From sequence record NC_010583.1: a stretch of DNA of 64,000 nt. One strand, written 5' to 3'. Shown one piece after another: positions 29,465-33,705 of the stretch (position 1 is the stretch's first letter; each line of letters opens with the position of its first letter). The notes below the pieces were generated by a model. It worked only from the letters and a program-made list of their open reading frames with translations, ran no database searches and was not told where the DNA came from. Both the position numbers and the translations under genes were made by a program. The stretch comes from Escherichia phage Eps7.

Positions 29465-29893
29465 ATGTTCGATAATCTTTTCATGAAAGAGGTAAACCCT
29501 ATGCTCCTCAACTTCTGGCGATCTCTCCCTGATGGTATGTATAATGAAACCATCAATCTGCTCAAGATTTGGTGTGAGAATAACGATATCTTCTTATCCT
29601 TTAAAGGCCCACTAGAGGAAGCTCCGTGTATTGGAGTTAGCGTGGATTTAGGGGAGGGAGTAGAAGAGATTGTAGACTGGAAAGAACTAGATGAAATGGG
29701 TCTGGTTTTTGCCTTGAACCATAAGCTGTTTATGCCTGCAAATCACCGTCTTATTGTAAACTATCGCACTGGTGAAGCTCCTGCTTTCCAGGTAAATGAA
29801 CGGGAGGGCTGGTCATATTCGCCCGAAGAAGTAAATGAGGGGATTCAGAAACTTCGTCGTTTCGGGTATATGATCCCAGGTTTAACTGCTTAA
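29465..29893 (+). CDS. hypothetical protein, paralog A (142 aa)
   Basis: Shares LVFALNHKLF.P...YMIPGL with the next gene (LIVALNFSIFHP...YVPGL). Confidence 0.55.
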   Translation: MFDNLFMKEVNPMLLNFWRSLPDGMYNETINLLKIWCENNDIFLSFKGPLEEAPCIGVSVDLGEGVEEIVDWKELDEMGLVFALNHKLFMPANHRLIVNYRTGEAPAFQVNEREGWSYSPEEVNEGIQKLRRFGYMIPGLTA

Positions 29894-29902
29894 GGAGGCA
29901 GA

Positions 29903-30298
29903 ATGGAACAAGTATTTTGGCGTCAGATAGATCCTAGTTTGGTAGAGCGTGCTGAGGGGCTCCTTGCACGTTGGTTGGGGGTTGACAAGGTTAGTGTAAC
30001 ATTTCCGTTTACTTCTGTAACAGACCCTAGTGTAGGTGTCTTTGTGGACGAAGATGAAGATGATGGTTGGGAAGCTGACTGGAATGAATTGTCCAGTATG
30101 GGCTTGATTGTTGCCCTCAACTTCTCTATATTCCACCCACGTGGTTTAGCTATTACACGTGATCCCGAAACCGGTGAATCCCCTTATCTTTTGCAAGTAG
30201 AAGATGATATTTGGGAGTACACCGAAGATATTCTCGAAGAAGCTAAAGGTCAATTAAATCGCATTGGGATCTATGTTCCAGGCCTAAATGATGATTGA
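29903..30298 (+). CDS. hypothetical protein, paralog B (131 aa)
   Basis: Tandem paralog of 29465-29893. Confidence 0.55.
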   Translation: MEQVFWRQIDPSLVERAEGLLARWLGVDKVSVTFPFTSVTDPSVGVFVDEDEDDGWEADWNELSSMGLIVALNFSIFHPRGLAITRDPETGESPYLLQVEDDIWEYTEDILEEAKGQLNRIGIYVPGLNDD

Positions 30299-30321
30299 TT
30301 TTCATTAGTCCAATCCTGATT

Positions 30322-30345
30322 ACCGAGTCATTTTGGCTCGGTTTT
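30322..30345 (+). terminator. intrinsic terminator
   Basis: Hairpin accgag...ctcggt followed by TTTTCTCT. Confidence 0.5.
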
Positions 30346-30390
30346 CTCTGTGCTCAAAGACACTGATAGCACCTTACGGAAAAATTTTAC

Positions 30391-30419
30391 TTGCAGGATG
30401 GTCAAAATCTTGATATAAT
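30391..30419 (+). promoter_or_regulatory. T5-type promoter (TTGCAG, 17 nt, TATAAT) with about 490-nt untranslated leader
   Basis: -35 TTGCAG, 17-nt spacer, -10 TATAAT; conserved leader start ATTTATATTGAATTGAGAGAC but no ORF until about 30916. Confidence 0.5.
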
Positions 30420-30915
30420 ATTTATATTGAATTGAGAGACATTAGTAAAAATTGATTTTGCTAATTTTTCTTGTTTACAATCCGCAATACGGAACAGTTA
30501 GGCTGCCCCATTAAGGGTTGTTTTAACTATTACTAGTGTTTATACTGCATTAGTTAATTATCAATTAAGTGATCTGCGTACCCTGAATTCGGAAAGGTAA
30601 ATCCAAACCGTGCATATTTAGCTCGTTATATAGGCAGAGCTTTATATGGGGGTGCGAACGAAAAGAGCAGCGAATGGTGACACGTCCAGTAGCCACCTAC
30701 CAATAGGATAGTGAGGGCAATCAGAATCGGCTTAGCGGCCAATGACCTAGGTTCTGATCTGGATAAGAGTTAAGAGAGCGCAGCACTGAGGTATGATAAC
30801 TTATTCATACTGCTTGATGATGATTAATGTTTGTGTAAATGGTAGTAATAGTTGTTCTATTCTTTTGAATAGTCCTAAAGAAAGATATTCGAATAACCAA
30901 CATAGGAGTATTGTT

Positions 30916-33705
30916 GTGTTCTCAATCCTACAAGGTCACGCAGGATTTTCCAGAGATAAAGCTACTGGCATCTGGAAAGAGATCAAAGTGGAAGATTACA
31001 CCTTTGCAAAGCGATTCTCTAAAGAGCATCCAGAAGGTAAACCAGCTTCCATGCCCTTCAAATTTGATGTACTTGAAGAACTTGACCCGCAAAACCTTGC
31101 TGAAATGTTACCTATCATGCGTCGTCTTACCAAAGACCCGCATATTGTAGCTATTCGTGGTAAATGTTTAGCCCCAAAAGATAATGTGCGTCGTACCAGG
31201 GGAAACTTTAACGTATCCAATCCTAGTCATATTATTGCTATGGACGTGGATGGTATTGTAGATACTGGTGGCTATGACAAGTTTAATCTTGTTGGCATGG
31301 CACGTCATATTATTAAGATGTTGAATAGTATTAGTGAGGATATGTTTCCTCTTGATGCAGGGTTTATTGCCCATGCATCGTCTTCGGCTGGATTAAAACC
31401 AGGTATCCGAATGCACTTAATGCTAGAATCTAATGTCAAGGTAACGCAGGGACAGTTAAAGTTCTTATTTACATCTATCAATGATAGTAGTAAGCAAAAG
31501 TACGGCTTTGATATTGCTGACTTAGCTTATTATTCTTCTGTTCAGCTTCACTATTTCGCAGATCCCTTATTTGATGATGGTATAGTCGATCCGTTTAAAG
31601 CGGAGAATAAACCACGTCTTGTGTATGTTAAGGGTTCGAAGGTAAATCTACCTAATAACCTAGTTGACTTTGAAACAACTAGAGGTGAGTTTAAAGAAGA
31701 GTTCTACTCCTTACTTGACCAAATTAAAGGCAAGAAGGCTGCATCTGATAAAGTGGAAGAAACCATCAGCGAACTAGAAGAAGCTGAGGATGGAGTGTAC
31801 CTGCGTATTATTCCAAAACTTTATCACAGAGCGTTAGAAGATGGTGTTGACTTTACGTGGTTAGAACGTGAAATTAAACCAGCTTTATCTGAGTATATTG
31901 CGACTAAAGATAATAGTCGTAATATTCAAGATTACTTTAATAACGGTCGTAAGCAGGCTCTCAAAGCCTTTGTAAATAACTCCAAACGTGAGATTCCACC
32001 AAACTTAAAAGGTGTACCATTAAAACGTCTAGACACAGATTCTCCACCAGAAGTTCCATACCTGAAAATTAACATTGTACCACCAAAAGGACATTTAACA
32101 TTTGTTAAGGCAAGTCTTGGTACGGGTAAAACTACCGCAGTAACTAAGTGGCTAGATGCAGGTGTTCTTCCAGGAAACTTTATTGCAATCACAAATACTA
32201 GGGCACTTGTATCTTCTAACGCGAAGAAATTCGGTGCTGGCCAGTATGATAAGTCAGTTGATATGCTGAACTTCAAACGTGGTGCCATTGATCGTATGTC
32301 TTCAACTATTCACTCTATCCATAAGTTCAAGAGCTTTGTGGGTCAGATTGATACGATCTTTATTGATGAATGTGACGCAGTAATGAATGATCTGTTATTC
32401 GCTCCGGTTGTTAAAAACCGTCGTGAATGTATTCAGGTTCTTCGTGATATCCTTATTACTGCTAAAACTGTTATCTTATCCGATGGTGATATCAGTGCAG
32501 AAACGATTGAAGCCTATGGTTCTTTGATTGATTTTGATAAACCAGTCGCATTTTATAATCACCACCGTAAAATGCTGGCGAAAGCTCATGCTTATGAATT
32601 CCCTGATGAATCCAGTATTTGGGTTGCACTTCAAACATCTTTAGAGATGGGGGAGAAATCAATCCTAGTATCTGACTGTGGCCCGGATGAACTGAATGAG
32701 AAGGGAATGGCATTACGTCGTAATACTGGTGCGTTAGTTAAAGAAATTCACTCAAACTCTACGTCTGATGTAGATATCCGACGTATTCTGGATTATACAA
32801 CTAATGAGCTAATTGATCAACAGATTGATTGTTTATTATGTAGTCCATCTGTAACGAGTGGTGTTGACTTTAACTATTTTGATAACGTATTCGTAATCAC
32901 TAGAACCTCAAACCAAGCGCCAAACATGCGTTTTCAAGCAATCAGGCGCGACCGTGGTGCTCAGAACATTTATTATTTTATTGATAAATCTACGAGTGGA
33001 TTTTCTGCGGGTTCCGAGCAATATAATATTGACGAAGGTTGGATTGAGTTAGCCCAACAACTGTACGCACGTCGTCGTGAGCTGGAATCTAGAAACTATA
33101 CCAGTACTTTGCGGTATTATCTTCTCGATCAAGGTGCAACTATTGATATTTTCAGTGAAAGCTGGGGAACTATCGAAGGTGCAGGCAAAGAGTATACAGA
33201 AGAGCGAATCAAAGCTATTTTGCACTCAACTCCTGAATATTGCGCACCACGTCATGCAGACGCATATGAAGCTAAATTGCTTCTGGTTCGCTATTATCAT
33301 CTGGATTCTATCAAAGATGTAACAGTGGAACATGTTGAACAGTATATCAAGGATAAACCGAATGATCGAGCTGCATTTTTCCACAAGATGCACGACATGT
33401 TCTGGGAAGATATTAAAAAGTGTTCAAACGTAACAATCAAACCGTTTATCGAAGCTCTTAAGAATAAGAAGAAGGATTTCTTCCTTAAGACAGGTCAGAG
33501 CGCTAACCCAAAATATGCTCGTATGTATCTTGGCATGATGGGTATCGGTAAAGATCTGGATACGGAAAAGATTGTGGACTGGTACAGAACTTACTGTAAG
33601 ATCGAATGTATGCCGATTCCAGTTAAGTTTATGACAGACGAAGAACGTCAGATGCACGAGGAAGCTCTTGCTGAATTGGGAGCTAGAAATGACAGTGAAG
33701 AATAA
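30916..33705 (+). CDS. large P-loop NTPase/helicase-like replication protein (putative origin-binding protein)
   Basis: Walker A GTGKTT, DExD-like IFIDECD; likely start GTG 30916 with AGGAG RBS 7 nt upstream (ORF track starts at 30793). Confidence 0.55.
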   Translation: MFSILQGHAGFSRDKATGIWKEIKVEDYTFAKRFSKEHPEGKPASMPFKFDVLEELDPQNLAEMLPIMRRLTKDPHIVAIRGKCLAPKDNVRRTRGNFNVSNPSHIIAMDVDGIVDTGGYDKFNLVGMARHIIKMLNSISEDMFPLDAGFIAHASSSAGLKPGIRMHLMLESNVKVTQGQLKFLFTSINDSSKQKYGFDIADLAYYSSVQLHYFADPLFDDGIVDPFKAENKPRLVYVKGSKVNLPNNLVDFETTRGEFKEEFYSLLDQIKGKKAASDKVEETISELEEAEDGVYLRIIPKLYHRALEDGVDFTWLEREIKPALSEYIATKDNSRNIQDYFNNGRKQALKAFVNNSKREIPPNLKGVPLKRLDTDSPPEVPYLKINIVPPKGHLTFVKASLGTGKTTAVTKWLDAGVLPGNFIAITNTRALVSSNAKKFGAGQYDKSVDMLNFKRGAIDRMSSTIHSIHKFKSFVGQIDTIFIDECDAVMNDLLFAPVVKNRRECIQVLRDILITAKTVILSDGDISAETIEAYGSLIDFDKPVAFYNHHRKMLAKAHAYEFPDESSIWVALQTSLEMGEKSILVSDCGPDELNEKGMALRRNTGALVKEIHSNSTSDVDIRRILDYTTNELIDQQIDCLLCSPSVTSGVDFNYFDNVFVITRTSNQAPNMRFQAIRRDRGAQNIYYFIDKSTSGFSAGSEQYNIDEGWIELAQQLYARRRELESRNYTSTLRYYLLDQGATIDIFSESWGTIEGAGKEYTEERIKAILHSTPEYCAPRHADAYEAKLLLVRYYHLDSIKDVTVEHVEQYIKDKPNDRAAFFHKMHDMFWEDIKKCSNVTIKPFIEALKNKKKDFFLKTGQSANPKYARMYLGMMGIGKDLDTEKIVDWYRTYCKIECMPIPVKFMTDEERQMHEEALAELGARNDSEE

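Follow-up and report, generated by a model that had tools for sequence, protein, structure and literature searches.

A candidate structured RNA family in the leader of the D2 replication gene of T5-like phages

The genome of Escherichia phage Eps7 (NC_010583.1), a T5-like phage of the genus Epseptimavirus, contains a leader of about 490 nucleotides (nt) between a strong promoter and the gene for the replication protein D2. The window analysed here is a stretch of 64,000 nt of this genome, to which all positions refer. The leader is best read as a new structured RNA family which is co-transcribed with D2. As judged by comparison of related sequences, its fold is kept by compensatory evolution in eight enterobacterial T5-like lineages, and the constraint is on the plus, transcribed-sense strand only. 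In the reading favoured here, to which we give a probability of about 0.45, the leader encodes a conserved, structured domain of RNA, about 430 nt long, which forms the 5' part of the D2 transcript and is processed or controlled at a long helix.

T5 is a classical model phage, yet ever since the publication of its genome the only annotation of the 490-nt interval has been ‘promoter’. The leader RNA heads the replication gene cluster and would thus provide a mutable handle on the control of D2 and on the start of T5 replication; it would also enlarge the short list of large structured phage RNAs by one family. An earlier, sequence-only reading of this DNA had suggested a structured regulatory or non-coding RNA, a riboswitch-like leader or an origin. 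The structured-RNA part of this suggestion is borne out by covariation in eight lineages and a fold z-score of -4.4; the riboswitch and the origin fared less well and are discussed below.

Fold and covariation of the leader RNA

Folded as a 500-nt RNA, the plus strand has a minimum free energy of -143.7 kcal/mol (z = -4.4), compared with -109.9 kcal/mol (z = -2.7) for the minus strand. The predicted elements are as follows, with the coordinates of P1 to P6 and of the core taken from the RNAalifold consensus.

30426-30915, plus strand: untranslated structured leader RNA, whole (about 490 nt), recognised by its fold energy, with no conserved open reading frame (ORF) and no Rfam match
30434-30472, plus strand: P1, 5'-terminal hairpin of 16 base pairs (bp)
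30477-30521, plus strand: P2, hairpin with the apical motif ACRGAACAGUNNGGCUGC at 30489-30506
30524-30564, plus strand: P3, 5' arm of a long-range AU-rich helix of about 35-38 bp
30568-30584, plus strand: P4, 5' strand, continuing P3 inward past a three-nt gap
30585-30772, plus strand: branched, GC-balanced core, with a hairpin at 30607-30653, the helix Py (30684-30689 with 30759-30764) and a hairpin at 30692-30718
30720-30758, plus strand: Px, hairpin of the core made up of an outer stem, an internal loop on the 3' side, an inner stem GGCU/GGCC and the loop UAGC
30773-30787, plus strand: P4, 3' strand, partner of 30568-30584
30790-30811, plus strand: P6, hairpin branching off the 3' strand between P4 and P3
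30814-30854, plus strand: P3, 3' arm, pairing with 30524-30564
30857-30872, plus strand: P5, small hairpin CUAUUC/GAAUAG between P3 and the ribosome-binding site

This architecture is shared by eight lineages from five host genera (phages of Escherichia/Salmonella, Klebsiella, Pectobacterium, Proteus and Providencia). Beyond Escherichia and Salmonella the set comprises Klebsiella phage Sugarland, Pectobacterium phages DU_PP_V and My1, Proteus phages Stubb and PM135, and Providencia phages PR1 and PSTCR5. Independent predictions place the elements in this order in the DT57C-type Tequintavirus, DU_PP_V, My1, Proteus and Providencia phages as well. A 5'-terminal hairpin is predicted at +3 to +9 from the putative start site in all eight lineages, although its sequence differs between them. 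Separate predictions for each lineage place a helix of 30-45 bp at the position of P3 in seven of the eight (Sugarland is less clear), enclosing a branched core of about 200-300 nt; G·U pairs account for roughly one in five of those in P3. Between the end of P3 and the ribosome-binding site of D2 lie about 50 nt. At the place of P5, Sugarland, DU_PP_V and My1 have a hairpin of related or different sequence; P5 has no T run downstream and is therefore not a terminator.

Within closely related groups the alignment is unambiguous, and compensatory changes are seen in several helices. At the base of P3, an A-U pair is replaced by G-C in DT57C-type phages and T5 has a G·U pair. In P4, CUGCG/CGCAG is replaced by CUGUG/CACAG in leaders of the T5 type and by CUACA/UGUAG in one subgroup of the DT57C type, while Py is GUCCAG/CUGGAU here, GUACAG/CUGUAU in T5 and UAUAUUGCA/UGCGGUAUA in DT57C-type phages. 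In P6, G-C changes to A-U in T5; DT57C-type phages have a hairpin of other sequence at the same place, with a U-A to G-C change of its own. When the minimum free energy structure of one sequence is taken as the structure, there are seven compensatory pairs in Epseptimavirus plus the T5 type and four in the DT57C type, as against 0-2 in slid controls and means of 0.46 and 0.18 with random partners. The variable pairs of the RNAalifold consensus structures in these groups are canonical on the plus strand in 17/19 and 17/27 cases, and in only 7/19 and 9/27 when read on the minus strand. Since variable pairs stay canonical mainly on the plus strand, the single changes that are tolerated are those that are G·U-neutral for a sense RNA.

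Across lineages, MAFFT misregisters the diverged helices, and a strict intersection of structures left invariant pairs only; the energies of cognate and non-cognate arms, together with a hand alignment, were therefore used instead. The arms of P3 are 47-67% identical between lineages. Cognate arms pair with -25 to -43 kcal/mol and non-cognate arms with -7 to -21, and relative to shuffled arms the cognate energies have z-scores of -5.6 to -9.1 (-2.8 in Sugarland). In unbiased 100-nt windows the contrast is smaller but still present, with a cognate mean of -59 against -43 +/- 6.5 for non-cognate windows. On the hand alignment of Px (A7, bulges removed), 99.2% of cells are paired against 36-46% in slid controls, a percentage that is optimistic; both sides change in 10 of the 14 pairs, and the number of pair types is less affected by the alignment. 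A covariance model built on Px (R2) recovers all eight lineages with one copy per locus and no second copy in the window. Another (R1), built on three near-identical Px sequences, was too specific and returned the other lineages as fragments only. Comparative alignment for covariation had been named as a check by the sequence-only reading, and compensatory changes were found in eight lineages.

A possible loop-loop contact was noticed by eye between the 3' internal loop of Px (30741-30749) and a hairpin loop at 30594-30601. The facing bases change jointly: ACCU/AGGU here, CCUC/GAGG in the DT57C type and CCUUA(A/G)/UUAAGG in DU_PP_V and My1.

The invariant blocks of the leader are two hairpin tips, those of P2 and Px, only. 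In Px, the eight nucleotides CUUAGCGG (30731-30738) are invariant in 8/8 lineages. The P2 motif is common to Epseptimavirus, both Tequintavirus leader types, Sugarland, DU_PP_V and My1, and is absent in the Proteus and Providencia phages; the outer stems of P2 vary in sequence among lineages and keep their pairing. Neither motif recurs elsewhere in the window, that of P2 occurring once. Nucleotides 1-98 of the leader are 99-100% identical among three groups in which third codon positions of D2 are 62-71% identical and the upstream gene 73-92%. The core is 93% identical to that of T5 and 54-56% to that of the DT57C type, and its type follows D2, not the upstream gene.

The possibility that the interval is a non-functional spacer or the remnant of a decayed gene, with incidental structure, is barely credible on these grounds. 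Several GenBank records do place small hypothetical ORFs here, but these shift in position and strand and are not conserved. Conservation of the 5' 98 nt well above that of D2 synonymous sites, compensatory changes in many helices and an architecture kept over five host genera all argue against it.

The D2 locus and its annotation

The leader and its promoter lie between an intrinsic terminator and D2, as follows.

30322-30351, plus strand: intrinsic terminator of the upstream operon (T5.105-107 homologues), with a nine-pair stem and a three-nt loop at 30322-30342 and then a T run
30391-30419, plus strand: T5 early-type sigma-70 promoter, with -35 TTGCAG at 30391-30396, a 17-nt spacer and the extended -10 TGaTATAAT
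30904-30918, plus strand: ribosome-binding site and start of D2, with the Shine-Dalgarno sequence AGGAG at 30904-30908 and GTG at 30916
30916-33705, plus strand: D2 (T5.108) homologue of 929 amino acids (aa), with a Herpes_ori_bp domain (PF02399), annotated ‘replication origin binding protein’

The promoter had already been proposed from the sequence, and its elements can be read at those coordinates, with the TG of the extended element at 30411-30412 and the -10 TATAAT at 30414-30419. It is annotated here in three T5 records, and a matching promoter is found in 8/8 lineages at an equal distance from the first hairpin. Transcription presumably starts at A30426, which is placed by analogy with the T5 promoter PN25. 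The records of T5 and Sugarland carry a terminator annotation at the same place as the terminator above. In T5 the same gap is annotated with ‘terminator’, ‘promoter’ and D2 only. The leader region is 99.8% identical to that of Salmonella and Escherichia Epseptimavirus phages and about 93% to that of T5, and a T5-type block with 21 tRNA genes is also present in the window.

The leader had been described as GC-balanced, which holds for the core (47-52% at 30600-30760) and not for the flanks, where the GC content falls to 18-28% (30400-30480, 30520-30580 and 30800-30900). The description of stops in all frames stands: no stop-to-stop frame exceeds 47 aa on either strand, and the leader is the largest ORF-free stretch of the window outside the tRNA region. 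No conserved ORF was found across the leader, the longest frames changing strand and place among relatives. Cross-lineage tblastn matches in the leader are spread equally over the six frames and are confined to the conserved nucleotides. A protein-coding gene or small ORF in the leader was therefore rejected, as no frame or strand is preferentially conserved. A conserved ORF spanning the interval in relatives had been named in advance as the finding that would speak against a non-coding leader, and none was found.

As had been proposed, GTG 30916, seven nt downstream of AGGAG, is the earliest start codon to be preceded by a ribosome-binding site. AGGAG and the start are kept in all 32 related loci (GTG, but ATG in Proteus phages), and in the same 32 the tblastn matches of the D2 protein begin at residue 1. 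The rival start, an in-frame ATG at 30793, has an open frame in this genus alone and meets stop codons in T5 and DT57C-type phages. Many GenBank records nevertheless give D2 as 970 aa from ATG 30793, an extension that falls within helices P6, P3 and P5. Because the frame is closed in T5 and DT57C-type phages and the extension lies inside helices, comparison of the sequences suggests that this start is probably a mis-annotation. The small hypothetical ORFs that GenBank records place inside the leader, inconsistently in position and strand, are probably wrong as well.

D2 was described by the sequence-only reading as an origin-binding or helicase-type ATPase, which agrees with its PF02399 domain and its homology to D2 of T5. 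D2 belongs to the bipolar SF2 helicases and is a relative of the herpesvirus origin-binding protein UL9 (PMC3632103), and when expressed alone it is toxic in E. coli (bioRxiv 10.64898/2026.07.11.737809). Residues 1-400 (30916-32115 in the window) form an N-terminal domain that lacks a Pfam annotation. A search of its sequence against the Protein Data Bank (PDB) gave no match. For its AlphaFold model (predicted local distance difference test score 80), the best fold matches in the PDB are all AEP primase-polymerases: the LigD polymerase domain, RepB', African swine fever virus PrimPol and human PrimPol. These matches are weak (E-value about 1e-3, template modelling score 0.2-0.33). The domain also contains the DxD-like motif IIAMDVDG. 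On the basis of the model, D2 may be a primase-helicase fusion.

The leader gap was found in 440 phage records, including T5, and also in more distant Demerecviridae. D2 homologues are preceded by leaders of 480-773 nt in every enterobacterial lineage examined, and each of these opens with a consensus-like promoter. In Proteus phage Stubb (L073) there are two perfect (12/12) sigma-70 consensus promoters, at 1205-1233 and 1935-1964. The first is placed precisely at the 5' boundary of the structured RNA, and the second lies 37 nt upstream of the ATG of D2, with about 250 nt of extra structured sequence between the RNA core and D2. The other seven of the eight lineages have no separate promoter for D2. 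Because the Proteus phages keep a second perfect promoter at its 5' edge, the element must itself be transcribed.

Possible roles of the leader

In the favoured reading, the element would function as RNA and not as protein-coding sequence or as a site in double-stranded DNA. P1 would shield the 5' end and stabilise the transcript. The stalk formed by P3 and P4 (30-45 bp) would be a point of processing or control, most plausibly a substrate of RNase III type comparable to the stalks that flank ribosomal RNA (rRNA). Cleavage of the stalk would detach the D2 message from a stable core RNA, thereby determining the amount of toxic D2; tight control of D2 behind a strong promoter makes sense because D2 alone is toxic. 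The invariant tips of P2 and Px may be recognition sites for a protein or for a tertiary contact.

Several known systems resemble this arrangement. In the stalks at which rRNA is processed and in RNase III sites of phages (E. coli rrn, T7 R1.1 and the lambda N leader), as here, the regions on the two sides of a structured RNA join in an imperfect AU-rich stalk of 30-45 bp within a longer primary transcript; similarity in sequence is not to be expected. Such stalks require at least about 20 bp of double-stranded RNA formed from flanking sequences, and P3/P4 provides this in 7/8 lineages with arms that co-evolve. In the rrn operons the enclosed RNA is rRNA, which is not the case here, and cleavage of the D2 leader is predicted by analogy. 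The 5' untranslated region of rpoS (about 567 nt) and the leaders of ompA and T4 gene 32 are likewise long untranslated leaders behind a promoter with a 5'-terminal hairpin. The stabilisers of the ompA type have a stem-loop a few nt from the 5' end, and P1 is predicted to begin at +3 to +9 in all eight lineages. The long helix of rpoS is an RNase III target that holds the translation start region, whereas P3 stops about 50 nt short of the ribosome-binding site.

A number of points weigh against the favoured reading. With DNA energy parameters the plus strand folds likewise (z = -4.3, against -2.55 for the minus strand), so that single-stranded DNA of the plus strand fits the energetics equally well. 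The choice of the P3 arms and of the Px alignment was guided by the structure, so that the percentage paired is inflated, and in the unbiased windows the own arm is the best partner in six of the eight lineages, Sugarland and My1 being the exceptions. The eight lineages are all that exist, and several are nearly clonal. We infer the start site, the 3' end and any processing of the leader RNA, and RNase III cleavage is proposed by analogy. Nor does conserved occlusion of the ribosome-binding site account for control in cis. The probability that the Shine-Dalgarno sequence is paired is about 0 in Proteus phages, 0.15-0.4 here and 0.96-0.99 in DU_PP_V, with different partners; no conserved occlusion mechanism is seen because this accessibility differs between lineages. 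Finally, in the Proteus phages, where D2 has its own promoter, the RNA is seemingly dispensable as a leader.

The Proteus arrangement fits more readily with an autonomous non-coding RNA acting in trans, in which the core closed by P3 would be a new large RNA of the ‘ornate’ phage kind, able to bind a factor of the phage or the host and merely co-transcribed with D2. In these phages D2 has a consensus promoter of its own downstream of the element, and the element keeps a separate one. The D2 ribosome-binding site is not consistently occluded, the size and branching of the RNA exceed those of typical cis-regulators, P3 is like the stalks that release stable RNAs, and the two invariant hairpin tips suggest specific recognition. 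Against this, all the lineages lack a terminator between the element and D2, seven of the eight have no promoter for D2 alone, the conserved motifs occur nowhere else in the window, and no homologue was found in the E. coli genomes and plasmids searched. This explanation is somewhat unlikely; it overlaps with the favoured one, and in it the position upstream of D2 would reflect conserved gene order and not regulation.

Large RNAs such as GOLLD, ROOL, OLE and raiA are similarly several hundred nt long, with many helices, structure kept above sequence and a function not evident from context, and GOLLD and ROOL are also encoded by phages. The leader differs in matching none of their covariance models and in being fused to an mRNA instead of forming a free-standing gene; it also has a narrow host range, enterobacterial Demerecviridae. 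The antitermination RNAs HK022 put and Bacillus EAR are also structured RNAs that follow a promoter and precede the opening gene of a long operon, but they measure 70-120 nt and Rfam scans show no similarity between them and the leader.

An Rfam scan had been put forward as a check on the RNA interpretation. Scans with Rfam 15 in E-value mode over 29500-31500 of the window and nine related loci gave no match within any leader, the families covered including GOLLD, ROOL, riboswitches, RNase P, tmRNA, 6S and group I and II introns. Outside the leaders they returned a chance-level KDPG-aldolase match in D2 and a sub-threshold small RNA at the terminator region of My1. A riboswitch sensing a metabolite or ion and governing D2 would suit the 5' leader position, the complex fold and the few invariant nucleotides. 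No terminator was found inside the leaders of any lineage, however, and there is neither an antiterminator nor a conserved helix that sequesters the ribosome-binding site. No Rfam riboswitch matches, the core is only 54-56% identical between close relatives, unlike a ligand pocket, and the gene context is a replication helicase with no metabolic link. An aptamer core would show many invariant junction nucleotides, and here invariance is confined to the tips of P2 and Px. The earlier suggestion of a riboswitch-like leader is thus not upheld, and such a switch is highly improbable.

The strand asymmetry of the fold would suit single-stranded DNA as well as RNA, as the energies with DNA parameters indicate. 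The plus strand might then carry a structured DNA signal of ssi or sso type for lagging-strand priming after strand displacement. RepB'-type AEP primases recognise ssi hairpins, and the N-terminal domain of D2 weakly matches RepB'. The loop of Px, TTAGCGG, holds TAGCG, five of the six bases of the CS-6 sequence TAGCGT which lies in a hairpin loop of ssoA origins on rolling-circle replicons (PMC4598088). A match of five bases could easily arise by chance, though, and T5 is not a rolling-circle replicon or plasmid. P3 would need more than 430 nt to be single-stranded simultaneously, and the G·U pairs that make up about a fifth of P3 are weak in DNA. The element also begins a few nt after a conserved transcription start and keeps its own promoter in Proteus phages. 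A DNA signal of this kind is very improbable.

The leader could instead mark a transcription-activated or RNA-primed origin beside the initiator gene, where a persistent hybrid of the transcript or the opened AT-rich flanks would load the D2 primase-helicase. The relation of D2 to the UL9 origin-binding helicase, the weak likeness of its N-terminal domain to AEP primase-polymerases and a strong promoter followed by about 490 nt of structured transcript, near the length of RNA II, are in keeping with this. So are the flanks of 18-28% GC (which coincide with the promoter, P1 and the P3 arms), the two tandem consensus promoters of the Proteus phages and the position of the site at 48.5% of the T5 genome. 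ColE1 RNA II is likewise a promoter-driven structured transcript of about 500 nt next to replication functions, and T4 oriF and oriG and the T7 primary origins combine a promoter with an AT-rich region near such functions.

The sequence itself offers little for an origin, which the sequence-only reading had considered, with a search for iterons as one check. None were found: the leader holds three two-copy direct repeats of 9-15 nt, at chance level. A scan of 30420-30915 for a promoter-like site on the minus strand, as for an antisense RNA of RNA I type, also found none; in both respects the leader differs from the origins above. The cumulative GC-skew minimum is at about 24-25 kb, 5-6 kb upstream of the leader, where gene orientation switches. 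The strand preference of recombitrons in T5 points to dominant unidirectional replication from one genome end (PMC10055335), which speaks against a dominant central origin, and a simple R-loop primer would need no covariation in a branched core. An origin in this sense is improbable.

A further and quite unlikely proposal is that the core enclosed by P3 represents a new class of large phage RNAs which are autonomous, and that it cooperates with the D2 primase-helicase in the start of T5 replication. It could form a primer or R-loop, act as a loading scaffold or serve as a specificity module that co-varies with D2. Two ‘alleles’ of the core (T5/Epseptimavirus and DT57C type) track D2 and not the upstream genes. 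If this proposal were true, T5 initiation, long unmapped, would become testable at a defined site. A search of the literature other than older T5 papers in subscription journals, directed at T5 transcriptomes, the T5 origin and any RNA described at the D2 leader, gave nothing specific.

Wider searches and variants of the locus

Searches for further members of the family added no new lineage. Metagenomes scanned for the P2 motif yielded 120 loci, nearly all chance matches, the real ones (L101, L155 and L191) being of known types. A scan of viral contigs with GGCTGC-N(212-238)-CTTAGCGG likewise gave mainly chance matches. The E. coli genomes and plasmids mentioned above, searched for a host counterpart or a decoy target, yielded no match.

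Vibrio T5-like phages have a gap of 0.7-1.1 kb upstream of the D2 homologue, in which long-range helices are predicted (38 bp in JSF10, L042 963-1288; 23 bp in Athena, L041 1506-1674). CUUAGCGG and the P2 motif are absent from the Vibrio loci, and the Px covariance model has no match there.

Just upstream of the leader, at 29465-30298 in the window, lie two genes (T5.106 and T5.107 homologues), and DUF7415, an uncharacterised domain, is repeated within each of them. In some relatives of the T5 and DT57C types, an inserted ORF of 168 aa that bears an HNH endonuclease signature (DHVNTIKGDDRIENLR) separates the T5.107 homologue from the leader promoter (L016, 1461-1967; also L018, L020 and L029).

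The ancestry of the region is mosaic. In a comparison of 29903-30915 with L017 and L023, the upstream gene is 92% identical between T5 and the DT57C type and 73% identical to that of this phage. Because the upstream gene and the leader core show different kinships, this pattern implies, as far as sequence comparison can tell, recombination breakpoints at the conserved 5' 98 nt.

An optional insert of 97 nt (AGTGAAGC...GAAAAAGT), with the direct repeat TTTTTCTT on its flanks, separates P1 from P2 in some phages of the T5 and DT57C types (L005, which is DT57C, L019, L022 and L036), at a site corresponding to about 30472 in the window. Matches of 592 nt suggest that it is perhaps also present in some Epseptimavirus records. 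The insert folds as a hairpin of its own and was seen at the leader site only.

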